From positions 18,271 to 82,270 of the forward strand of contig JBBDKG010000013.1 in assembly GCA_040879435.1 (NCBI GenBank): a stretch of DNA of 64,000 bases. Direction: 5' to 3'. Origin of the DNA: Minisyncoccota bacterium (GTDB taxonomy: Bacteria; Patescibacteriota; Minisyncoccia; Phycocordibacterales; UBA918). The translations under genes and the position numbers were made by a program. Shown here in pieces: positions 3,944 to 59,927 of this stretch; positions within the stretch are counted from its first letter, which is position 1, and every line of letters begins with the position of its first letter. The notes under the pieces are model-generated. The model searched no databases. It had not been told where the DNA came from and worked only from the letters and a program-made list of their open reading frames with translations.

Positions 3944-4618
3944 TTGAGAAAACCACATTCATCATTCAACGCAAAGTCACGAACGCGCATCAACAACGCA
4001 ATCCGCGCGCGTGAGCTTCGTGTGGTCGGCGCCAACGGCGAGAATCTTGGCGTACTGCTCCTCAACGACGCTCTGAAAGCAGCCGAAGAGGCTGGATGCG
4101 ACCTCATTGAGATCTCCCCGAACGCCAAACCACCGGTAGCCAAGATCATGGACTTCGGTCAGTACCGCTATCAGGAGAAGCGGAAAGCAAGCGAGGTGAA
4201 GGCAAAGTCGCACGTGACGGAAACAAAGAGCGTGCAAGTGAAGATCGGTACTGGCGAACATGACCAAATGCTCAAGGCCCGCCGTGCTGCCGAATGGCTT
4301 TCCGAAGGTCACCGCGTGAAAGTGGACCTCTTTCTCTGGGGCCGGTACAAGTATATGGAGCCAGCCTTCTTGAAGGAGCGACTGGAGCGCTTCCTGAAGC
4401 TTATCCCGATCGAATACAAGCTGGCGGATGAGATCAAGAAGAGCCCGAAGGGATACACAACGACGCTCGAGCGGGAGGGCAAGGCAAAATTCCAGCCAGC
4501 CAAAGAGAGTGCGAAACCTGCCCAAATCCTTGAAAAGGAGCCGAGAGAGTCGGAACAACCACCGGCAAAGTCGAAAAAGAAGTCCCTCGATGAGCTCATT
4601 GAAGGCGGTCTGCTATAG
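3944..4618 (+). CDS. infC: translation initiation factor IF-3 (non-ATG start; exact start uncertain, 3866-3950)
   Basis: The ORF contains INNAIRARELRVVGANGENLGVL..LIEISPNAKPPVAKIMDFGQYRYQ and a C-terminal domain (HVTETKSVQVKIGTGEHD), and carries a Lys-rich C-terminal tail; infC classically uses an unusual start codon and there is a TTG at 3944. Confidence 0.8.
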   Translation: MRKPHSSFNAKSRTRINNAIRARELRVVGANGENLGVLLLNDALKAAEEAGCDLIEISPNAKPPVAKIMDFGQYRYQEKRKASEVKAKSHVTETKSVQVKIGTGEHDQMLKARRAAEWLSEGHRVKVDLFLWGRYKYMEPAFLKERLERFLKLIPIEYKLADEIKKSPKGYTTTLEREGKAKFQPAKESAKPAQILEKEPRESEQPPAKSKKKSLDELIEGGLL

Positions 4619-4681: not shown

Positions 4682-4873
4682 ATGAAAACGAATAAATCAT
4701 TTACAAAAAGAATCAAGGTGACCAAGAACGGCAAGCTCGTTGCACGAAAGCCTGGCCAGAACCACTTCAACGCACGTCAGACCGGTCAGCAGCGCCTGAA
4801 CCGCCGCCGCACTCAGGTTCTCACGATGTCGAAGCGGATCACGCGACGATTTCTTCCTAAATCTGGTGCCTAG
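4682..4873 (+). CDS. rpmI: 50S ribosomal protein L35
   Basis: The 63 aa basic product reads MKTNKSFTKRIKVTKNGKLVARKPGQNHFNARQ and lies between infC and rplT. Confidence 0.9.
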   Translation: MKTNKSFTKRIKVTKNGKLVARKPGQNHFNARQTGQQRLNRRRTQVLTMSKRITRRFLPKSGA

Positions 4874-5681: not shown

Positions 5682-6161
5682 TTAGTCGCGCACAAGCCGA
5701 AGTGCGGTAGAAGCATATCGATGAACTTCCGGCCGCATACGCGAGTCGTCCTTTAGGAGGTCGTCAAGTTCCGTCTGCGTGAGCCAGCGACATTCTGCTC
5801 CTTTGTCCGCTTCTGTTTGCGGGTTAATCTCCCGCGAATCTGCTTTTGCAGCAAAAATGATTGATGAATGCTCATGTGTGTCCGTAACAAAATGCCGGTT
5901 CACGAACAGTGGCGGTATGAGGTCTCTGTTTGTCTCCGTATCTTTCTGCTCCCAATCAGCCGGGCCGACTAAGGATACCTTGAGTCCGACCTCCTCCCAT
6001 ACCTCACGAAGAGCTGCTTCGTTCACATCCTCACCTGGATCAATATGACCGCCAGGAGCATTCCAGATATCGTACTTCTCATGGAGTCGCAATAATACCG
6101 CATCACCGTTAACGACATATGTATCGACGCATAGATCAAGATAATAGTTTGAGTGTGCCAT
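5682..6161 (-). CDS. NUDIX hydrolase
   Basis: A NUDIX box is present: GGHIDPGEDVNEAALREVWEEVGL. Confidence 0.85.
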   Translation of the reverse strand: MAHSNYYLDLCVDTYVVNGDAVLLRLHEKYDIWNAPGGHIDPGEDVNEAALREVWEEVGLKVSLVGPADWEQKDTETNRDLIPPLFVNRHFVTDTHEHSSIIFAAKADSREINPQTEADKGAECRWLTQTELDDLLKDDSRMRPEVHRYASTALRLVRD

Positions 6162-24992: not shown

Positions 24993-25376
24993 CTACATGA
25001 GCGAGATGCTGTCTCCCTTCTTGAGGTAGACGTACGCCTTCTTCATGCCTTTCTCCGATACGGTCCGACCTAGTCGGCGGGAGATGTACTGACGCGGGGC
25101 TTTGTTGACGATGTTCACCTTCACCGGCGTCACGTTATAAAGCGCTGTGATCGCCTCCGCTACGTCGTGCTTGGTCGCATCGCGGCGAACGATGAACGTA
25201 TATACGTTCTGTTCACTCTTCTGCATCGCCTTTTCAGTGATGCGCGGCTTTACGATGACCGACGAGAGGTTGCGATCTGCCACCGCCGCTACCGCAGGTC
25301 GTGCGGGTGCAGCTGTAGCTGGCGCTTTCTCGGCACTCTTCTTCGCTGGTGCCTTCTTTCGACTGAATAATGCCAT
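24993..25376 (-). CDS. rplW: 50S ribosomal protein L23 (with an Ala/Lys-rich N-terminal extension)
   Basis: The product contains VIVKPRITEKAMQKSEQNVYTFIVRRDATKHDV. Confidence 0.85.
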   Translation of the reverse strand: MALFSRKKAPAKKSAEKAPATAAPARPAVAAVADRNLSSVIVKPRITEKAMQKSEQNVYTFIVRRDATKHDVAEAITALYNVTPVKVNIVNKAPRQYISRRLGRTVSEKGMKKAYVYLKKGDSISLM

Positions 25377-25400: not shown

Positions 25401-26063
25401 TTACGATACCCGCTTCTCGAGGATCGAAACAGATGCATCCGGAGCGGTCATAATAACGTACTTGTACGTTAGGAGGTCCACCGGATTGATGTCCTTCGCC
25501 TGTGCGACGAGGAGGTTCCCAAAGTTACGGAAACTCTTCTCCGTCACCTCATTTCGCTCTGGAAGTACGATCAGCGCAGCGTTGGTCCGCTTGGTCGCGA
25601 GCCCTGCCTGCTTGCTGCCGTCTGCGAGCGCCTTCAGAATCTGCTTTGCAGTAGTTGCCTTTGGTGCCTCAAAGGCGAGTGCATCAACGAACAACACTTC
25701 GCCGTCCGCTTGCTTCTTTGAGAGCGTGCTTGCGAGCGCCTTAGCACGCATCTTCTTGTTGATCTTCTTGGTATAGTCCTTTTCGCTTCGAGGTCCGAAG
25801 GTGATACCACCACCTCGCCAGATCGGCGAACGTCGCGACCCATGGCGCGCACGACCGGTCCCCTTCTGCTTCCACGGCTTCTTTCCGCCGCCGGAAACTT
25901 CACTCCGGTCCTTCGTATGTGCCGTTCCTGCGCGTGCATTCGACTGCATTGCAATCACGACCTCGTGTACGAGATCGGGATTCCACGCCACATTGAAGAC
26001 GGTCTCAGGAAGATTCACCTTCCCGGTCGCCTTTCCTTCTACAGAAAATACTTGTGCTTCCAT
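25401..26063 (-). CDS. rplD: 50S ribosomal protein L4
   Basis: The product contains SGGGKKPWKQKGTGRARHGSRRSPIWRGGG. Confidence 0.9.
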   Translation of the reverse strand: MEAQVFSVEGKATGKVNLPETVFNVAWNPDLVHEVVIAMQSNARAGTAHTKDRSEVSGGGKKPWKQKGTGRARHGSRRSPIWRGGGITFGPRSEKDYTKKINKKMRAKALASTLSKKQADGEVLFVDALAFEAPKATTAKQILKALADGSKQAGLATKRTNAALIVLPERNEVTEKSFRNFGNLLVAQAKDINPVDLLTYKYVIMTAPDASVSILEKRVS

Positions 26064-26065
26064 GG

Positions 26066-26686
26066 TTAGATGCTTCTTACCTCTACTAATGTTCCTTTTC
26101 GACCTGGTATCGCTCCTTTAACAAGGAGCAGATTCTCTGATGCATTCACCTGAAGTACGGTGAGGTTCTTGACCGTCACCCGGTCACCGCCCATGCGGCC
26201 CGCCATGCGTGTGCCCTTCTGGACACGCTGGATGCCACCTGAACCGATCGCTCCCGGTTCACGGTGCGAGTGTTTCTGTCCGTGACTACCCGGTCCGCCA
26301 TGGAAGCCGTGCCGCTTCACACCACCCTGAAAGCCCTTACCCTTCGAGATGGCAGAGACTGCAACATTGTCTCCTGGAGCGAACATCGCCGCATCGAGTG
26401 TCTGACCCTTCTCGAACCCTTCGAGCGAGTCGTCGAACATCTTGCGTACGCGAAACTCCTTCACATACTGCACTGCCTTGCCGACATGGCCTCTTACGGC
26501 CTTGCCAACGCGATGCTCCTTCTGTTCGCCGCCGGCGACCTGAATGGACTCGTATCCATCAGAGTCTGCGGTCTTCACTTGCGTGACCGCAAGCGGCGCA
26601 ACGCGAAGTACCGTTGCTGGGTAGCAGACGCCGTTCTCATCAAAGCACTGCGTCATGCCGTCCTTTACGCCGAGAATGAATTTCAT
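26066..26686 (-). CDS. rplC: 50S ribosomal protein L3
   Basis: The product begins MKFILGVKDGMTQCFDENG and contains FQGGVKRHGF. Confidence 0.95.
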   Translation of the reverse strand: MKFILGVKDGMTQCFDENGVCYPATVLRVAPLAVTQVKTADSDGYESIQVAGGEQKEHRVGKAVRGHVGKAVQYVKEFRVRKMFDDSLEGFEKGQTLDAAMFAPGDNVAVSAISKGKGFQGGVKRHGFHGGPGSHGQKHSHREPGAIGSGGIQRVQKGTRMAGRMGGDRVTVKNLTVLQVNASENLLLVKGAIPGRKGTLVEVRSI

Positions 26687-26936
26687 TCAAATTTGCAGTT
26701 ATCTGGTAACGCTTTGCCGATGACCGTGTAACGAAAACGCGCGTACGAGTACGCGAGCACAAGCTCACGCATATATACGCGCGATTCGTGCCCATTGGTC
26801 TTCCCGAATAGGGAGTACGTAGGTCTTGGAAAGCTGGCGAGAGTATACGCTAGAGACGAGAAATTGCAAGAACACAGTTGATATTAGTACCCCGCGTGGT
26901 ACTTTAGTGGAAACAGTTTGTTCTTGGGAGGTATAC

Positions 26937-27011
26937 ATGTCTGACGTACATCCATTCCTCTACAGTCTCGGCAGCGTCGCCCCTATCTTGCCGCTGTGGC
27001 TCTACTGTTAG
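26937..27011 (+). CDS. candidate small peptide (24 aa, hydrophobic) with a consensus Shine-Dalgarno sequence
   Basis: gggaggtatacATG; the product is MSDVHPFLYSLGSVAPILPLWLYC. Confidence 0.2.
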   Translation: MSDVHPFLYSLGSVAPILPLWLYC

Positions 27012-27101
27012 ATCGCTTTCATCCGTAGAGAAGCCGTCCTCGGTCACCTGAAGTACGAGTATGGCTCATACTCTGCTCAAAAATATACTTCCGAGTTTGA
27101 C

Positions 27102-27287
27102 TTGCTTGTGACGGTGAATGCCGTAGTGGGTGCAAGCATGGGTCTCATCGTAGGAAGCGTGATCGCAGTGCTCTTCGCAGACGGGCATGCCACACTCTTT
27201 CTCTTTGCCTTGTATGGACTGACCACGTTAGTGCTCGCAATGCTGGCCGGACATCGTATCGAAGCTCGAATCCGGCCACCTGTCTAA
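27102..27287 (+). CDS. candidate small 2-TM protein (TTG start)
   Basis: The product is LVTVNAVVGASMGLIVGSVIAVLFADGHATLFLFALYGLTTLVLAMLAG. Confidence 0.25.
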   Translation: MLVTVNAVVGASMGLIVGSVIAVLFADGHATLFLFALYGLTTLVLAMLAGHRIEARIRPPV

Positions 27288-27421
27288 CGACATACGAAGA
27301 CTGTGCCGCCGCCCACTGCTGACTGCTTGCAGAAAATGGACTTTCTCCGTATGGTGGGTATAGAACAAGTTAAGCGGATGTCTTGTTCTTCGTTTCCTCA
27401 CATCCGCAAAAGGAGGTTGCC

Positions 27422-27493
27422 ATGCCGTATACGCTGGCTAAGATCAAACTCGTCTTCGGAGTACATCCGGACCTCCCCCGCCCTGATATCTAG
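27422..27493 (+). CDS. candidate small peptide (23 aa) with a consensus Shine-Dalgarno sequence
   Basis: aaaggaggttgccATG; the product is MPYTLAKIKLVFGVHPDLPRPDI; a plus-strand terminator follows (27525-27566). Confidence 0.2.
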   Translation: MPYTLAKIKLVFGVHPDLPRPDI

Positions 27494-27524
27494 CAAAGGA
27501 GAGGGCTGTTCACCCCATTCAATA

Positions 27525-27566
27525 CGCCCCGTCGCATCAAGCGGCGGGGCACTCTTGTTTTTGTAT
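27525..27566 (+). terminator. intrinsic terminator (plus strand)
   Basis: The sequence is cgccccgtcgcatcaagcggcggggcactcttgtttttg. Confidence 0.6.
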
Positions 27567-27598
27567 AGAAAAACGGACGTGCAATGGTCAGCACGTCC
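27555..27598 (-). terminator. intrinsic terminator for gene 27588-28094 (hairpin overlaps the stop codon)
   Basis: The minus strand reads ggacgtgctgaccattgcacgtccgtttttctatac. Confidence 0.6.
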
Positions 27599-28094
27599 GC
27601 CAGAATTGTTTCGCCTCGGAATATTTCATTACGAGGACTCCTTCAGTAGGAAACCCGCCGTGGGAATTGACCCACGCGGTGATCTTCTTTGACTGAGGAG
27701 GATCGGTCCGCGCGCCCGTTTTGAGGTTTCTTACCTTGTGGAAACCGAATCGCGCGTGGCGTGTGATGCATACATTGGATCGGGCCTTATCTGCCAGTAT
27801 GGCGCATGCTGAGTTGCAGGCCCCATTGACCACCAACACCCGCTTCTCGCGCTGAACAATGCGCACGAAGTTATCGAAAGCGTGGACGACCCCACCGCTG
27901 TTTGCGTTGATCACGCACGGATTCCCGCACCCAAGCGGTCCGAAGAGTGCGCGTTCAGGATCTGAAACGCCGTACTCCAACTGGTGTTCGATGCGGCTTG
28001 GGCCGAAAACTACGTGCCATCCAAGTCCGATCACCACTGCTCCGAAAGAGCCGACGATGATCCACATGATGGTATCGAGAAATTTCGAGTTCAT
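27588..28094 (-). CDS. membrane-anchored ClpP/S49-fold (NfeD-like) serine peptidase candidate
   Basis: After an N-terminal TM the product reads INANSGGVV..VVNGACNSACAIL...ITRHARFGFHK, which aligns with ClpP INSPGG..GQAASMG..IMIHQP; the Ser and His positions are conserved. Confidence 0.45.
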   Translation of the reverse strand: MNSKFLDTIMWIIVGSFGAVVIGLGWHVVFGPSRIEHQLEYGVSDPERALFGPLGCGNPCVINANSGGVVHAFDNFVRIVQREKRVLVVNGACNSACAILADKARSNVCITRHARFGFHKVRNLKTGARTDPPQSKKITAWVNSHGGFPTEGVLVMKYSEAKQFWRTC

Positions 28095-28136
28095 TGCCGC
28101 CTCCTCTCTGCTTGGGGCCTGTTTCTATCTCTTCGT

Positions 28137-28165
28137 ATACTACCACATATTTATGTATAAGTCAA
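28137..28165 (-). promoter_or_regulatory. near-consensus sigma70 promoter TTGACT-N17-TAGTAT for the ClpP-like gene
   Basis: Minus strand: ttgacttatacataaatatgtggtagtat, with a GAGGAGG Shine-Dalgarno sequence 6 nt before the ATG. Confidence 0.5.
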
Positions 28166-28184
28166 AATTATCCCCACGCACAAC

Positions 28185-28218
28185 AAAAGCCGCCAGGCAA
28201 AGCCTGGCGGCTTTTGTG
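28185..28218. terminator. bidirectional intrinsic terminator downstream of rpsJ
   Basis: The sequence is aaaagccgccaggcaaagcctggcggcttttgtg. Confidence 0.8.
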
Positions 28219-28228
28219 AAGGCAACCA

Positions 28229-28591
28229 CTAGATCATTTTGACATCGATGTTCACACCTGAGGGTAGCGAGAGGTTCGTGAGAGCCTCGATCACCTTCCC
28301 GCCCGGGTTGTGAATGTCGATGACACGCTTATGCATGCGCATCTCGAACTGTTCTCGCGCATCCTTGTGCACGAACGTTGAGCGGTTCACTGTGTACTTC
28401 TTGATCTCCGTTGGAAGTGGGATCGGTCCCACCACCTTCGCATCAAAGCGAAGTGCGGTGTCAATGATCTGCTTTACGCTCGCATCAAGGATCTTGTGTT
28501 CGTATGCACGTACGCGGATCCGTAGTTTCTGGATCTCGCCGCCGGCATCCTTGCCCTTTGCGGGAGTCTTCTTTTTCTCTGTAGTTGCCAT
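28229..28591 (-). CDS. rpsJ: 30S ribosomal protein S10
   Basis: The product contains IRIRVRAYEHKILDASVKQIIDTALRFDAKVVGPIPLPT. Confidence 0.95.
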   Translation of the reverse strand: MATTEKKKTPAKGKDAGGEIQKLRIRVRAYEHKILDASVKQIIDTALRFDAKVVGPIPLPTEIKKYTVNRSTFVHKDAREQFEMRMHKRVIDIHNPGGKVIEALTNLSLPSGVNIDVKMI

Positions 28592-28631
28592 AGTGAGTTT
28601 TTCTCGTTAGTCGCCGTAGACGGCGCGCTGA

Positions 28632-29825
28632 TTAGGCGACGATCTTCGTTACCACACCGGCACCAACCGTCTTTCCGCCTTCGCGGATCGCGAACGTCTG
28701 CTTCTCTTCGAGCGCGACCGGAGCAACCAGCTTCACTTTGAAGGTCGCGGTGTCTCCCGGCATCACCATCTCAGTTCCTTCCGCAAGGGTCACTTCACCC
28801 GTCACGTCAGTGGTGCGGATGTAGAACTGCGGCTTGTAACCACCGAAGAACGGCGTGTGTCGTCCGCCTTCTTCCTTCGAGAGTACGTATACCTCAGCTT
28901 CGAAGTCAGTGTGTGGAGTAACTGCGCCTGAAGCTGAAAGTACCTGTCCGCGGTGTACGTCCTCCTTCTTCGTACCACGGAGGAGAATACCTGCGTTGTC
29001 TCCAGCCTGCGCTGAGTCAAGAGACTTGTTGAACATTTCAACGCCGGTCACTGTCGTCTTCGTTGTATCCTTGATACCAACGATCTCGATCTCTTCACCA
29101 ACCTTGACCTGTCCGCGCTCTACACGACCGGTCACTACCGTGCCGCGTCCTTCAATCGAGAAGATGTCCTCGATCGGCATAAGGAACGGCTTGTCGAGAT
29201 CACGTTCTGGAAGCGGGAAGTATGAATCCATCGCGTCCACGAGTTCAACGACCTTCTGTCCGTACTCACCTGCAGGATCCTCAAGCGCCTTGAGGCCTGA
29301 ACCGTGGATGATCGGCGCTTCAGCACCGTCGTATCCATTCTTGGTAAGGAGCTCACGAAGCTCTTCCTCCACGAGCATAAGCATTTCCTCATCGTCGACC
29401 ATGTCGCACTTGTTGAGGAATACGATGATCTTCGGTACACCCACCTGGTGCGCCAAAAGCACGTGCTCGCGTGTCTGAGGCATCGCACCGTCTGTTGCGG
29501 CTACCACAAGTACCGCGCCGTCCATCTGTGCGGCACCGGTGATCATGTTCTTGATGTAGTCGGCGTGACCTGGCGCGTCGATGTGCGCGTAGTGTCGGTT
29601 CGGGGTCTCGTACTCAGAGTGCGAGAGAGAAATAGTAATACCGCGCGCCTTCTCTTCCGGCGCTTTGTCGATATCTTCCACCGCCTTGAGGTTGGCGCTG
29701 TAGCCGTCGCCCTTCGCGTGAAGCACGTTGAGGATCGCAGCTGTAAGCGTGGTCTTACCATGGTCAACGTGACCAATGGTACCAACGTTCATGTGCGGCT
29801 TCGATCGGTCAAAATCTGCTGCCAT
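28632..29825 (-). CDS. tuf: elongation factor Tu
   Basis: The 397 aa product contains [21 protein letters not shown] and NKCD. Confidence 0.97.
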
Positions 29826-30167
29826 AATGAATATTGATTAGATAACTAAATAATCCGCACACAGCTGCTTTTTACAATGAAAAAGCCATGCACGAGCACT
29901 CAGGGGTTGCGGCGCGAGAAACGCGCGACCTCCGGGCACACGAACGTGTGAAAGAGCAAAGTATATTTACTCCCTACAGCAAAAGCTGTAACGGTGGCGG
30001 TATGGTACATGAGTGATGTGGTGTTTGCAAGCCTTATTCCTCGATCCCACGCCCTTTGCGAACGAAAGTGAAATCTTCATAGACAGTGCCAGGTTGTACA
30101 TAATGAAGAAATTGTGAAATTATGAGGTAAAGCAACGTCACCGATCAACCAGGAAAGGAGGAAGGCG

Positions 30168-30770
30168 ATGCGTGGAAGGTTCTTTTACTATATAGCGGTG
30201 CTTCTCTGCATACTGTCTCCTTCCATAGCGGCAGGTGACAATATGAAGACGGGTACTCAGACGTCCCAACCTATTGGCCATTACGACTTCTGCCAGGTAC
30301 TTCCTACAGAATGCACGATCCGACCGCAGAAGGTCGGACCAATAGTGCTCACCGACAAGGTCTGGCTCCTGATCGTCTCGACGAACAACGAGGTCAACAG
30401 TGCCGTTCGCCCGCTGAACGACATCGATATCTACGGCCGGGACGAGGTCTGGACCTATCCAGACAATGGAAGCGGTGACTGCGAGGACTATGCCCTCCTG
30501 AAGCGGCGCGAGCTCAATCAGGCCGGCATCTCGCTTGCCAACCTTCTTATCACCGTGGTGCGCAAACCCGACGGTGAAGGGCATGCGGTACTCACGGTCC
30601 GCACGAATACAGGCGATATCGTTCTCGACAACCTCACTGACGAGGTCCGGTCGTGGCGAGACACCGGCTACCGCTTTCTGAAGCGTCAGGCCAGCTATCA
30701 CACCGGCAGGTGGGTCAGTTTCGACCGACGTGATAGAGTCGGCCATCTAGCCTCCACTGATGGAAGGTAG
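30168..30770 (+). CDS. bacterial transglutaminase-like cysteine proteinase (BTLCP family), secreted
   Basis: The product has a signal peptide and reads GSGDCEDYALLKRRELNQAGIS...GEGHAVLTV (Cys/His catalytic arrangement); a strong Shine-Dalgarno sequence (aggaaaggagga) precedes it. Confidence 0.7.
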   Translation: MRGRFFYYIAVLLCILSPSIAAGDNMKTGTQTSQPIGHYDFCQVLPTECTIRPQKVGPIVLTDKVWLLIVSTNNEVNSAVRPLNDIDIYGRDEVWTYPDNGSGDCEDYALLKRRELNQAGISLANLLITVVRKPDGEGHAVLTVRTNTGDIVLDNLTDEVRSWRDTGYRFLKRQASYHTGRWVSFDRRDRVGHLASTDGR

Positions 30771-30787
30771 GGTCGCCACCCAAACGC

Positions 30788-30821
30788 AAAAGCCCCCGAC
30801 ACAGTGCCGGGGGCTTTTTTC
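30788..30821. terminator. bidirectional intrinsic terminator (BTLCP gene / fusA)
   Basis: The sequence is aaaagcccccgacacagtgccgggggcttttttc. Confidence 0.85.
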
Positions 30822-30836
30822 TATATGACCTCTTGC

Positions 30837-33002
30837 TTATTCAGCCGCCTCAGTGGTGATACCACGCGCCTTCTTGATCTCCATCGCCACGTTCGGTGGT
30901 ACGACCGCGTAGTGGTCGAACTCCATCACCATGTTTGCCCTACCTTCGGTCATCGAACGGAGTGTGGTGGTGTATCCGAAGAGTTCGGAGAGCGGCACCA
31001 TCGCCTTGATCACCTTCACCATGTCACGGTCCTCCATACCTTCGACGAGTCCGCGCTTTGATGAGATGTTTCCGTTGATGTCACCCATGAACTTCTCCGG
31101 AGTGGTGACCTCGATCTTCATGATCGGCTCCAAGAGGACCGGATTCGCACGCTGCGCTGCCTCCTTGAAGGCATTGATGCCGGCAAGCTTGAAAGCGATC
31201 TCTGAGGAGTCCACATCGTGGTAGCTACCATCGAAGAGTTCGACGGAGATATCTTCCATCTTGTATCCGGCAACGAGACCGCGTCCCATCGCCTCACGAC
31301 AACCCTTCATCACGGCCGGGATAAACTCACCCGGGATCACACCTCCCTTGATGTTGTTGACGAACTCAAAGTGATCCTCACGAGTGACGTTCTTCTTCAC
31401 CTCCTCGTCCTCAGCAAGTGGCACCATCGGTTTGATCCTGATCTTCACATGACCATACTGACCGCGACCACCAGACTGCTTGATATATTTATGCTCCGCC
31501 TCAGCTTCGCGCTGGATGGTCTCACGATACGCAACCTGTGGCTTGCCGGTCGCGGCCTCAACTCCGAACTCGCGCTTCATACGATCAACGAGGATCTCAA
31601 GGTGGAGCTCACCCATACCCGCGATGATCGTTTCCATCGTCTCGTCGTCGGATGAGACCTTGAAGGTCGGGTCCTCGTCGGAGAGCTTCTTCAGTGCAAT
31701 ACCCATCTTCTCCTGATCGTTCTTCGTCTTCGGCTCGATACGCATCGCGACCACTGGCTCGGGAAAGGTGATCTCCTCAAGTACGATCGGCTTGTCCTCA
31801 TCACACAGTGTGTGAGACGTCTTCACGTCCTTCAGACCCACACCTGCCGCGATCTCGCCAGCGTACACCTCTTCAACCTCTTCACGTTTATCTGCCTGCA
31901 GACGGACAATACGGCCGAGACGTTCTTTCTCTCCGGTGTTCGCATTGAACACATAGCTACCTGCTTTGACGGTACCTGAATACACACGGAAGAACGTGAG
32001 CGCCCCCACGAATGGGTCGGTCTGAAGCTTGAACGCAAGTGCGCAGAACGGAGACTCATCACGCGCCTCACGTGTCTCAGGCTCATCGGTCTTCGGATTC
32101 TTGCCTTCGATCGGCGGAAGGTCCACCGGTGATGGGAGGTAGTCCACGACAGCGTCGAGAATGCGCTGTACGCCGACGTTCTTCAAAGCCGAACCGGTCA
32201 TGACCGGGAAGATCTGGTTATCGATCACCGCCTTGCGAAGTGTCTTCTGGAGTTCCTCGTAGCTTGGCTCGTTCCCTTCAAGGTACGCGTTCATCTGCGC
32301 TTCGTCGTTCTCAACGATCCGCTCCACAAGCTCACCGTGATACTTTTCAGCTTCGGCTCGGTATTCATCTGGGATCTCGTGCTCGATCACATTCATTCCC
32401 ATGTCGCCCTCGAAGGTGTATGCCTTCATCTTGAGAAGGTCGATCACACCTGAAAGGTTATCCTCCTTGCCCCATGGGATCTGGAAACGAACCGCCTTTG
32501 GAGAAAGTCGTTTCAAAATAGTGTCGTATGAACGCTCGAAGTCGGCACCGACGCGGTCCATCTTGTTGATGAAACAGATACGCGGTACCCCTGCCTCGTC
32601 AGCATAGCGCCAGTTCGTTTCGGACTGCGGCTCCACTCCGGCCACGCCGTCGAACACCACGATCGCACCGTCCAAAACACGCATCGAACGCTTCACCTCT
32701 GCGGTGAAGTCGATGTGTCCCGGTGTATCGATGATGTTGAACGTGAACTTGTGCTCTTTGCTGGTTCGGTCAGGATTCAGAGAGGGCGTCCAGTCGCAGG
32801 AAATAGCGGCGGCGGTGATGGTGATACCACGCTCACGCTCCTGGTCCATCCAGTCGGTCACGGTCTCTCCGTCGTGTACCTCGCCGATCTTGTGGCTCAT
32901 GCCGGTATAGAAGAGCACGCGCTCGGATGTGGTGGTCTTGCCGGCGTCAACGTGCGCGACAATACCGAAGTTACGTAGTCTCTCGAGTGGGAATTTTCTC
33001 AT
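30837..33002 (-). CDS. fusA: elongation factor G
   Basis: The 721 aa product reads [24 protein letters not shown]... Confidence 0.97.
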
Positions 33003-58811: not shown

Positions 58812-59927
58812 TCAGAACATCGGACCTGACGAATCAATCGCTTGATTGATTTGCGCGCGCAACGTACCGCGGTGATCATCATCTTCTCCCTGCGAAGGAG
58901 TGAGGAGAGTCGTTTCCTCCGTGAGGATCCGCTCGATCGCTGCTGCTTCAAGCAGAAATGGACCGTACTGGGCCACGATTGCGATAGCGTCCCCTTGATT
59001 CACATGCACGATGGGATCAAAAAGGTCCGAAAAACGCACCATTTCGCGGCGCAGCACCGGCTGAGCAATTTCTCGGAGCTGTACATCGATTTTTGGCACG
59101 AACTCGACCGCATCCGGTTCCGCTGTGACAAAAAAGTCAACGCCGTTCTTGTCAAGAAGCACGATCTTCTCAGCCACCTGTTGCGGCGGGGTCGGGAGAT
59201 TGATCGTAAGTTTCGCGACAGCATCTGCTGGCGTCCGATTACCAGGGAAGAGATCGCGAAGAAGATCAAGGTGCGACTTCCCGCGGAGGTACGCTCGCAC
59301 AACACGACGCGGATTATAGCTCGACGGGAGCCCTTTGAACAAGAATATGACCGCGGCAAAAGCCAACGTCGTCCCGAGCATTACTTGCACCCACCCTGAC
59401 ATTGGTCCAAAAAATGAGTCGATCGATACAGGGGCTACAAAAACGACACCGAGCGCCAGGCAAACATAGACGATGTTCAAGGTAAAAAGACGCTCTGTAA
59501 TGGGAATGAAGTCAGGCATCGCCGCATTCACAGACCCATTCTCGTTGAATCCGAACTCGAATAGGTCATACTGCTTCCGAATGGCATCCCACGCACCGCG
59601 TGGAATGAGCGCAAGCGGTTCAACACCAATCTTCGTGAGCTTGTCACGAAGCGCCCTCGCATCCCGTTCATACTGGTCGATATCAGCCCGGAGCTTCGCG
59701 ATCTGGTACAGGTGTTCGTTCGAGATACGCTGCCTTGTCTTCTGCTCCTCGCGCGCAGCGTGATCGATGTCCCGTATCTCGAGACCGTTGATAATCCGCG
59801 TTTGCGGGATCTCCTCGTCGATTGTCGGGTTCGCTGCTCGCTCTTTCAGGGTCGCTATGCGTACGGCAACCCGCTCCTCAACGGTACGTTCAATCTCTTT
59901 GAACGTCTCTGCATGTGGATGAATCAT
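58812..59927 (-). CDS. hypothetical membrane protein (N-terminal coiled coil, 2 TM, C-terminal domain)
   Basis: 371 aa; TM helices at LNIVYVCLALGVVFVAPV and VQVMLGTTLAFAAVIFLF. Confidence 0.45.
   Translation of the reverse strand: MIHPHAETFKEIERTVEERVAVRIATLKERAANPTIDEEIPQTRIINGLEIRDIDHAAREEQKTRQRISNEHLYQIAKLRADIDQYERDARALRDKLTKIGVEPLALIPRGAWDAIRKQYDLFEFGFNENGSVNAAMPDFIPITERLFTLNIVYVCLALGVVFVAPVSIDSFFGPMSGWVQVMLGTTLAFAAVIFLFKGLPSSYNPRRVVRAYLRGKSHLDLLRDLFPGNRTPADAVAKLTINLPTPPQQVAEKIVLLDKNGVDFFVTAEPDAVEFVPKIDVQLREIAQPVLRREMVRFSDLFDPIVHVNQGDAIAIVAQYGPFLLEAAAIERILTEETTLLTPSQGEDDDHRGTLRAQINQAIDSSGPMF

Follow-up and report, generated by a model that had tools for sequence, protein, structure and literature searches.

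Organization of the rpsJ-rplC junction

In the Candidatus Paceibacterota MAG considered here, rplC (26066-26686, minus strand) and rpsJ (28229-28591, minus strand) are parted by a gap of exactly 26687-28228, which bears out an earlier estimate that S10 and L3 are separated by about 1.5 kb. Positions are those of the window, that is, the whole 64,000-nucleotide stretch of DNA that was analysed. Adjacency of S10 and L3 is otherwise near-universal. Table 1 gives an overview of the features found within the gap.

Table 1. Features of the spacer between rplC and rpsJ, in order of position
Feature	Position	Strand	Remarks
rplC 5' leader	26687..26835	-	conserved motif, long hairpin, then TTTTCGTT
Promoter-like site TTGCAA-16-TATACT for the rplC operon	26842..26869	-	comparable sites upstream of rplC in relatives
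116-codon frame, small membrane protein with about 3 TM segments	26937..27287	+	GGGAGG at 26926-26931; in-frame TAG at 27009-27011
Candidate 23-codon ORF MPYTLAKIKLVFGVHPDLPRPDI	27422..27493	+	AAGGAGG at 27410-27416; GGAGG 5 nt ahead of ATG
Intrinsic-terminator-like hairpin (10 pairs, 9 G-C) and T-run	27526..27560	+	would end the plus-strand unit
Intrinsic-terminator-like hairpin and T-run	27572..27601	-	overlaps the stop codon of the 168-aa gene
168-aa signal-anchored protein; predicted extracytoplasmic domain at about residues 57-168, minimal ClpP/crotonase fold	27588..28094	-	AF2 model and family profile
Strong Shine-Dalgarno sequence AGAGGAGG	28100..28107	-	5 nt ahead of the ATG of the 168-aa gene
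Promoter-like site, sigma-70 type, TTGACT-17-(TG)TAGTAT	28137..28165	-	upstream of the 168-aa gene
Perfect inverted repeat, 16 bp, 3-nt loop, 100% complementary	28183..28217	.	directly 3' of the rpsJ stop codon

Transcription of tuf-rpsJ would stop at a terminator after rpsJ, and rplC-rplD-rplW-rplB would start anew from a promoter and leader of its own. The inverted repeat behind rpsJ has a G+C-rich core between A4 and T4 and therefore has the appearance of a bidirectional terminator, at which the tuf-rpsJ transcript would end. The transcript boundaries around the spacer are putative, their ends being pattern matches.

The content of the junction varies among relatives. Across 80 related rplC loci, the rpsJ-rplC gap measures 694-3559 bp in the nearest relatives versus less than 150 bp in many others, and the cargo, which includes ParE toxin genes, differs and is unrelated from genome to genome. 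When the spacer was compared with all loci by tblastx and blastn, its sole conserved part was the rplC leader. Since the junction divides two separately transcribed operons, it would be able to take in foreign genes. Our favoured reading, held with moderate confidence, is that the gap between S10 and L3 is a variable spacer dividing two operons and that it contains two independent convergent units here and no single functional module. The first unit would be a self-contained one-gene cassette consisting of a promoter, a strong Shine-Dalgarno sequence, an ORF and a terminator, with a 168-aa protein as its product. The second, a plus-strand unit beside the rplC leader, would comprise a broken gene for a 116-aa protein with about three TM segments, then a candidate 23-codon ORF and then a terminator.

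A broken membrane-protein gene and a short ORF

The original prediction placed on the plus strand two short ORFs for candidate peptides, a separate ORF with two TM segments, and a terminator. The terminator was found as a hairpin at 27526-27550 followed by a T-run. The first short ORF, of 24 aa at 26937-27011, does exist and has GGAGG 5 nt ahead of its ATG, but it represents the truncated 5' end of a 116-codon frame. The two-TM ORF is not a separate gene, as it continues the frame of the 24-aa ORF and is parted from it by the one TAG at 27009-27011. Joined across this codon, the frame is 81% identical to an intact 116-aa homologue, P0163, which has Trp at the TAG position. The homologue came to light only with the joined frame; the 61-aa two-TM piece searched alone found only itself. 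PGAP annotates only the last 49 codons of the frame (27138-27287). Codon 25 of the frame reads TAG in place of TGG in this assembly, a nonsense change that reflects either a pseudogene or an assembly error. Recoding of TAG was considered as well and was rejected because rpsJ itself ends in TAG. The intact homologue, on a contig of ERR3697022, adjoins a presumed rplC, recognized by geometry alone (248 nt versus 250 nt here).

For the downstream 23-codon ORF, all of the evidence consists of its Shine-Dalgarno sequence and a codon score of 0.23, which is weakly coding-like; the ORF has no entry in the protein collection and no relative in any locus examined. GGAGG followed by a start codon occurs at 43 sites in the window, mostly inside other genes, and because the combination is common by chance here, the motif alone is weak evidence. 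Within the spacer, GGAGG-ATG is over-represented, with 3 sites versus about 0.2 expected from the window-wide rate. Estimated coding likelihood ratios were about 0.5 (24-aa piece), 2.8 (23-aa ORF) and 3.3 (C-terminal part of the broken frame), and the underlying distributions overlap too much to decide.

The 168-aa gene, its neighbours and its origin

The 168-aa ORF at 27588-28094 (minus strand) is present as described and corresponds to the NCBI hypothetical protein WDZ93_02790; its TM anchor is one N-terminal hydrophobic segment at residues 12-30. The expression signals ascribed to it were likewise located. The promoter-like site TTGACT-N17-TAGTAT runs from 28165 to 28137 and has a TG extension in addition, and the Shine-Dalgarno sequence reads AGAGGAGG and lies 5 nt ahead of the ATG. 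Similar sites, of the form TTGCAT...TGTATAAT, occur upstream of rplC in related genomes, and this promoter type therefore appears to be used in the clade. A Shine-Dalgarno sequence is absent from 54 of the 70 long ORFs in the genome, and the strong one of the 168-aa gene is among very few.

The proximity of this gene to the short ORFs had suggested a peptide-maturation or signalling module, in which a membrane protease processes or senses adjoining, strongly translated peptides. All of the genes do lie inside 1.5 kb, both short ORFs follow strong Shine-Dalgarno sequences, which this genome seldom uses, the plus-strand unit has its own terminator, and the codon score of the 23-aa ORF is mildly coding-like. 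Such a module is nonetheless very improbable. The supposed 24-aa peptide is a fragment of a membrane-protein gene whose frame is intact in a relative, and the genes are convergent, each with its own terminator. The 168-aa gene lacks conserved neighbours: in 15 further loci with relatives of its product, no neighbour is shared and no relative of the small ORFs is present, and no copy of the gene itself occurs at any of the 80 related rplC loci. The nearest relative of the 168-aa gene anywhere is just 51% identical, whereas the 116-aa gene has a close relative, which suggests separate histories.

The 168-aa gene was probably acquired horizontally, as its family is also found in Alphaproteobacteria, in prophage-like regions and in phages. 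Its codon score is 0.13 versus 0.32 ± 0.16 for native genes, and a strong Shine-Dalgarno sequence, in a genome where so many long ORFs have none, is a further sign of a foreign gene. One could go further and regard the whole island as the decayed remnant of a prophage or mobile element between rpsJ and rplC, with the 168-aa gene as a surviving phage accessory gene. A PHROG match (phrog_19619, E = 7e-7), top BFVD matches to phage 'putative secreted' proteins, a relative encoded on a Methylobacterium plasmid within a prophage-like block that also contains tail and lysozyme genes, and the broken gene next door would all fit this proposal. It is improbable, however, as the window contains no integrase, tRNA or flanking direct repeats around the island, the GC content is the same as that of the surroundings, and a tblastn search of 50,697 phage records returned no match. 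Moreover, a second organism appears to have the 116-aa gene adjoining a presumed rplC, and it is therefore not evident that this gene belongs to the same insertion.

A family with a minimal ClpP/crotonase fold

The family of the 168-aa protein comprises 2,386 representatives (E < 1e-3; clusters at 50% identity) and is covered by no Pfam or NCBIfam model. Among 145 family representatives, C93, S95, C97 and H119 are 100% conserved, G67/G68 99% and D102 98%. The key elements of the protein are GG67-68, C93-x-S95-x-C97, H119 and six conserved cysteines. The AF2 model (pLDDT 86.6) places an N-terminal helix at residues 3-29 and predicts a strand at 87-94, Ser95, a helix at 96-103, strands at 108-110 and 115-118, and then His119. 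As modelled, the protein has the alpha/beta fold of the ClpP/crotonase class; both fold searches rank ClpP proteases above crotonases. TM-scores are only about 0.4.

Relatives of the 168-aa protein bear signal peptides, and lipobox-like motifs are present in 51 of 159. By its predicted topology, the protein would be tethered by a signal anchor and its domain would lie outside the cell. The ectodomain would be a stripped-down ClpP/crotonase fold that dispenses with the ClpP handle and N-terminal docking region. The active site would follow the same order as in ClpP, beginning with a GG oxyanion-hole motif, continuing with Ser95 at the strand-to-helix elbow and ending with His119, which closes the next-but-one strand. 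Across the family, C109 and C168 are lost together, while C56 and C60 mostly co-occur; these patterns suggest C109-C168 and C56-C60 disulfides, and a C93-C97 disulfide is a guess. The protein would most likely act as an ATP-independent, disulfide-stabilised Ser/His hydrolase, be it a peptidase, amidase or esterase, with envelope or extracellular substrates.

Alternatively, the ClpP/crotonase fold may serve another purpose: C93-x-S-x-C97, H119 and D102 might build a metal site or a Cys-His centre, or the protein might be a disulfide-rich binding module devoid of catalysis. The invariance of C93 and C97 equals that of S95 and H119, and with these two cysteines on either side of Ser95 the chemistry could instead be Cys-based or metal-dependent. 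A conserved counterpart of ClpP Asp171 was not found by manual motif alignment, in which the residue three positions ahead of M156 varies (consensus G-x-L-x-M); the sole near-invariant acidic residue of the family is D102, on the Ser helix. In addition, no peptidase family matches the protein significantly in sequence, and the crotonase superfamily contains many non-protease enzymes. We nevertheless regard a role other than hydrolysis as unlikely. Outside the cell, crotonase chemistry that depends on CoA is implausible, Ser95 and His119 sit at a strand-to-helix elbow and a strand end as they do in ClpP, the GG motif is nearly invariant, and the fold searches favour ClpP proteases. The paired loss and co-occurrence of cysteines also suit disulfides over metal ligands. 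A Ser/His hydrolase therefore remains the preferred assignment.

Comparison with known proteases

The original prediction aligned the 168-aa protein to the ClpP core with the Ser and His positions conserved. The ClpP-type fold and the invariance of S95 and H119 (145 representatives) uphold part of this claim, but no significant match to ClpP exists at the sequence level. CLP_protease (PF00574) was matched neither by the protein at E ≤ 1 nor by 49 family members at E ≤ 0.01, and the Pfam profiles NfeD and S49 gave no match to the protein either. Searches of PDB sequences by phmmer and hmmsearch with three profiles retrieved no ClpP, and neither hhalign nor an HMM search gave a significant match to ClpP sequences. 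Sequence homology to ClpP, S49 or NfeD was rejected, with nothing significant in Pfam, NCBIfam at threshold, PDB or hhalign. The spacing of the motifs is 28 residues from GG to Ser and 24 from Ser to His, compared with 30 and 25 for ClpP of E. coli. Automated pairwise alignment puts the ClpP SPGG on a second, C-terminal NSHGG motif of the 168-aa protein; therefore, the proposed equivalence of Ser and His is drawn from the fold rank, the order of secondary-structure elements and the motif spacing and not from residue-level superposition.

Several features set the protein apart from ClpP (MEROPS S14). The ClpP domain is about 190 residues long with a handle and N-terminal docking loops, which build a tetradecameric chamber and dock an AAA+ partner, whereas the domain here is about 110 and has neither; just 12 residues lead from H119 to the next conserved block, and the N-terminus is a TM anchor with no handle region. 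In contrast to ClpP, the protein is cysteine-rich and predicted to be extracytoplasmic and signal-anchored, and so it could not partner an AAA+ unfoldase. The sole sequence models touched by the family are those of ClpP-related phage head-maturation proteases, NF045542 (Clp_rel_HeadMat) and NF045540. The former is matched below threshold by 7 of 49 members at E ≤ 0.1 (best E = 2.5e-6) and the latter by one member. For the 168-aa protein itself, the NF045542 match covers residues 62-130, spanning the GG, Ser and His motifs, and misses the curated cut-off (15.4 versus 120 bits). A prohead protease would not have the signal anchor found here, and no phage structural (capsid-module) genes are near the 168-aa gene within the window.

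Turning to membrane proteases, SppA (S49) and the NfeD 1510-N protease employ a Ser-Lys dyad. The 168-aa family differs in that His119 is invariant while the adjoining K120 is shared by just 70 of 145 representatives; the protein has no match to Pfam Peptidase_S49 or NfeD, no Ser-Lys dyad and no stomatin partner gene. It is a plausible Ser/His hydrolase outside the ClpP, SppA and NfeD families. More tentatively, and with slightly less than even confidence, we propose a hitherto undescribed family of 'mini-ClpP' Ser/His peptidases in Alphaproteobacteria, Patescibacteria and phages, which would be secreted or membrane-anchored and stapled by disulfides, having no handle, no ATPase partner and a C-x-S-x-C...H signature.

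The rplC leader

Within the rplC leader, the conserved motif GACCAATGGGCAC lies at 26800..26788, and the long hairpin has a conserved apical stem-loop, GYGAGC-(T)TGT-GCTCGC, at about 26738-26783. The fold has a z-score of -3.7. Leaders occur in long and short versions that differ in architecture, and they were judged by single-sequence folds and motif enrichment, as MAFFT misaligned the 3' arms. A cmscan search of 26000-30900 (E ≤ 1) yielded no Rfam match in the leader and three weak, unrelated sRNA matches, all elsewhere. From its sequence, the leader looks like a transcription attenuator.

The S10-operon leader of E. coli is a site of L4-mediated attenuation. The candidate leader, which combines a promoter-like site with a conserved motif and a terminator-like hairpin shortly ahead of the L3-L4-L23-L2 block, would have the same regulatory position and logic. 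The two differ in that the leader here precedes rplC, while that of E. coli precedes rpsJ. One report (PMC3616713) describes E. coli ribosomal-protein leaders as largely confined to Gammaproteobacteria.

Significance

Two cautions for gene finding arise from this locus: a Shine-Dalgarno motif is no marker of native genes in this genome, and a short peptide ORF preceded by one can turn out to be the remnant of a broken gene. In this Paceibacterota clade, the adjacency of S10 and L3 is broken and the junction behaves as a cargo site, while the L3-L4-L23-L2 block appears to have a promoter of its own and a conserved leader resembling an attenuator. To our knowledge, no ribosomal-protein autoregulation has been described in this phylum, and the rplC leader offers a testable candidate for it in Patescibacteria. 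The family of the 168-aa protein has thousands of members, some in phages, for which there is no current Pfam or NCBIfam model. If catalytically active, it would constitute a very small, ATP-independent, extracytoplasmic branch of the ClpP/crotonase-fold peptidases and, should the mini-ClpP reading be true, would merit a peptidase family of its own. The rplC leader and this uncharacterised mini-ClpP-fold family are the parts of the locus worth following.

Family, predicted fold and putative active site of p168

The protein referred to here as p168 is encoded between rpsJ (S10) and rplC (L3) in this Candidatus Paceibacterota (Patescibacteria/CPR) MAG, in an island whose coordinates, as first noted, match the rpsJ–rplC intergenic region exactly. 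It is identical to NCBI MEX0918058.1, annotated 'hypothetical protein WDZ93_02790'. Its sole NCBIfam match, which is sub-threshold, is to a ClpP-related head-maturation protease model (E = 0.013, residues 62-130), while PHROGs returned phrog_19619 (function unknown; E = 7e-7). A word-indexed search recovered 11 relatives at 40-51% identity, and a profile searched against 1.84 billion cluster representatives extended the family to 2,386 representatives (E < 1e-3), of which 138 reach E < 1e-30; almost all are 150-240 aa long. A ClpP-related prohead protease model is matched by 7 of 49 family members, with a best E of 2.5e-6.

In an alignment of 145 representatives, C93, S95, C97 and H119 are conserved at 100%, followed by G67/G68 (99%), D102, C109 and C168 (98%) and R105 (94%). 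The relatives carry N-terminal signal peptides, with lipobox-like motifs in 51 of 159, and p168 itself has one hydrophobic segment (residues 12-30). C109 and C168 are lost jointly in 3 of the 145 members, and C56 mostly occurs with C60, a pattern that fits disulfide pairs within an extracytoplasmic domain.

An AlphaFold2 model built on a 12-sequence alignment has a mean pLDDT of 86.6, exceeding 90 for residues 60-168, and Foldseek matched it to ClpP (E = 1e-4) and 1510-N (E = 4e-4). In the predicted secondary structure, Ser95 follows strand 87-94 and precedes helix 96-103, and His119 sits where strand 115-118 ends, which is the topological order of the ClpP nucleophile and base. The motifs are spaced 28 residues from GG to Ser and 24 from Ser to His, the corresponding spacings in E. 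coli ClpP being 30 and 25. Manual motif alignment found no conserved equivalent of ClpP Asp171 in the family, and the domain, at ~110 residues, is without the handle and N-terminal region of ClpP. The original prediction of a ClpP fold was a good one. We conclude that p168 has a predicted ClpP/crotonase fold, and a role as a Ser/His hydrolase is plausible. Membership of ClpP, S49 or NfeD was rejected, since no sequence method used gave a significant alignment to ClpP and no Pfam family matched p168 at E ≤ 1.

Two similar N-S-x-G-G motifs are present in p168, INANSGGVV (residues 61-69) and WVNSHGGFP (141-149), and pairwise alignment with ClpP favours the second, C-terminal NSHGG motif. The pair, which may reflect repeated beta-beta-alpha units of the fold, complicates motif-based assignment.

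Short open reading frames and genomic neighbours

On the opposite strand, two short ORFs with Shine-Dalgarno (SD) sequences and a two-transmembrane (2-TM) ORF had been described. These sequences exist, but the 24-aa ORF (26937-27011) is not a separate gene: it shares one frame with the 2-TM ORF (27102-27287), split by a single TAG at 27009-27011. Searched alone, the 61-aa 2-TM piece has no homologue; the joined 116-aa sequence matches P0163, a 116-aa protein in the Logan assembly of ERR3697022, at 81% identity across its whole length, the two sharing start and end and differing by no indels. P0163 has Trp at the position of the TAG, and the remaining 21 substitutions are mostly conservative (mean BLOSUM62 +0.6). 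Since the frame is single and P0163 is intact with Trp at the TAG, the '24-aa peptide' is, as judged from sequence, the truncated start of a gene whose membrane-protein product would have about three TM segments. On the 1,129-bp contig of P0163 the start of a minus-strand gene lies 248 nt before the ORF, and 250 nt separate rplC from the 116-aa frame in the window; this geometry suggests that the neighbour is rplC. Recoding of TAG was rejected because rpsJ ends in TAG, making it an ordinary stop codon in this genome. The nonsense change marks either a genuine pseudogene or a fault in the assembly; the PGAP annotation is limited to the final 49 codons of the frame.

The 23-aa ORF is absent from the protein collection, has no relative in the loci compared and has a weakly coding-like codon score. 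Antisense within it, at 27466 (minus strand), a GGGGGAGG-plus-ATG site (GGAGG) opens a 22-codon ORF. One or both of these overlapping sites are probably spurious, and this overlap indicates that SD-plus-ATG sites also arise by chance in the spacer.

Relatives of p168 are encoded at 15 further loci, on high-GC contigs resembling Alphaproteobacteria, on a few low-GC contigs of CPR type and on a Methylobacterium plasmid. The neighbouring genes differ throughout (ArsC/TrkH; gyrB/pheST; ychF; lysozyme and tail genes in a prophage-like block), and none of the 15 has a relative of the 116-aa or 23-aa ORF. No p168 relative occurs in 80 rplC loci from GTDB species representatives. In the window the two units are convergent, each with its own predicted terminator. 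The suggestion that a membrane protease and short peptides form a processing or signalling module fails for at least one 'peptide' and lacks support for the other, with no shared neighbours in the 15 loci.

In the viral library, p168 is matched best by a 'putative secreted protein' of 167 aa from Rhizobium phage Paso (E = 2e-8). A relative with 39.7% identity, on Methylobacterium indicum plasmid pVL1_2 (111444-111932), lies in the prophage-like block directly downstream of genes for a tail protein, tail protein X, lysozyme and several small hypothetical proteins. This setting hints that phage-borne members have an envelope- or lysis-associated role.

Features of the region and of related rplC loci (L numbers, loci of related Patescibacteria)
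Feature	Position	Strand	Remarks
fusA	30837-33002	-	
BTLCP/Peptidase_C93 gene	30168-30770	+	between fusA and tuf; Pfam Peptidase_C93 E = 2e-61; transglutaminase-like cysteine peptidase; strong SD AAAGGAGGAAGG
tuf	28632-29825	-	
rpsJ	28229-28591	-	
rpsJ–rplC gap			1,542 bp
p168 gene	27588-28094	-	
23-aa ORF	27422-27493	+	AAGGAGG 5 nt before ATG; predicted plus-strand terminator 33 nt downstream
116-aa frame	26937-27287	+	
rplC leader elements	26687-26869	-	promoter-like site 26869..26842; motif GACCAATGGGCAC; long, terminator-like hairpin, then T-run
rplC	26066-26686	-	then rplD, rplW, rplB
rplW	24993-25376		
371-aa orphan ORF	58812-59927	-	strongest SD in window (AAGGAGG); no Pfam match
Leader in relatives	L005 about 5890-5990; L007 about 4330-4440; L008 about 4685-4790		
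S10–L3 variable cargo junction	L005-L009, L012, L016, L030, L041, L048, L052		gaps 0.7-3.6 kb

The rplC leader and the S10–L3 junction

In relatives, the only conserved part of the spacer is the 100-150 nt directly upstream of rplC, with shorter versions in L009, L012, L016, L034, L040, L041 and L045. The apical stem-loop of the leader hairpin is conserved, and the outer stem varies in sequence yet keeps its complementarity across the window, L005, L007 and L008. The window's leader is unusually stable in folding (z = -3.7), and RNAalifold gives a conserved alternative pairing of GGGCAC with GUGCUC, which could be an antiterminator. The leader motif, also written GACCAATGG(GCAC), was searched as [AG]ACC[AT][AC]TGG and shows a 31-fold enrichment within the 220 nt preceding rplC across the loci (10 matches in 17.4 kb versus 30 in 1.65 Mb), a hairpin and T-run following it in every instance there. 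With no Rfam match in the region, the leader is a candidate for a new ribosomal-protein autoregulatory attenuator in Paceibacteria.

The S10–L3 distance in the nearest relatives (L3 identity 51-71%) is 694, 2072, 946, 3559, 1034, 1472, 941, 931, 911 and 1203 bp, and in many other Patescibacteria it is < 150 bp. The cargo ORFs are mutually unrelated, with ParE-type toxins in two genomes (L012, L048), and the junction is a variable cargo site in the clade. A perfect 16-bp inverted repeat between A and T runs lies 3' of rpsJ; together with the rplC promoter-like site and leader, it points to tuf-rpsJ and rplC-rplB being transcribed separately in the clade, which would explain why cargo genes can settle here. 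In L005, the closest relative, the corresponding position holds a copy of the BTLCP gene with 54% identity, and this insertion is therefore older than the p168 gene. In their translations, S10 and L23 (rplW) carry N-terminal extensions rich in Lys, Ala and Pro, about 20 and 35 residues long.

Shine-Dalgarno usage and possibly acquired genes

An SD of ≥ 4 nt is absent from the start of 54 of the 70 long ORFs in the window, tuf, fusA, rpsJ and rplC among them, and the genome makes almost no use of such sequences. GGAGG-based SDs occur only before the p168 gene, the 116-aa frame, the 23-aa ORF, the BTLCP gene and the 371-aa orphan, which may be another acquired gene. Since SDs are rare on long ORFs and most of the 43 sites at which GGAGG precedes a start codon lie inside genes, a 'perfect SD' is no marker of native genes here. 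Instead, strong SDs seem to mark accessory, possibly acquired genes, and the lower codon score of the p168 gene (0.13; native genes average 0.32, sd 0.16) points in the same direction. What remains is p168 as a new, unannotated variant of the ClpP-fold enzymes that probably entered a variable inter-operon spacer as cargo.
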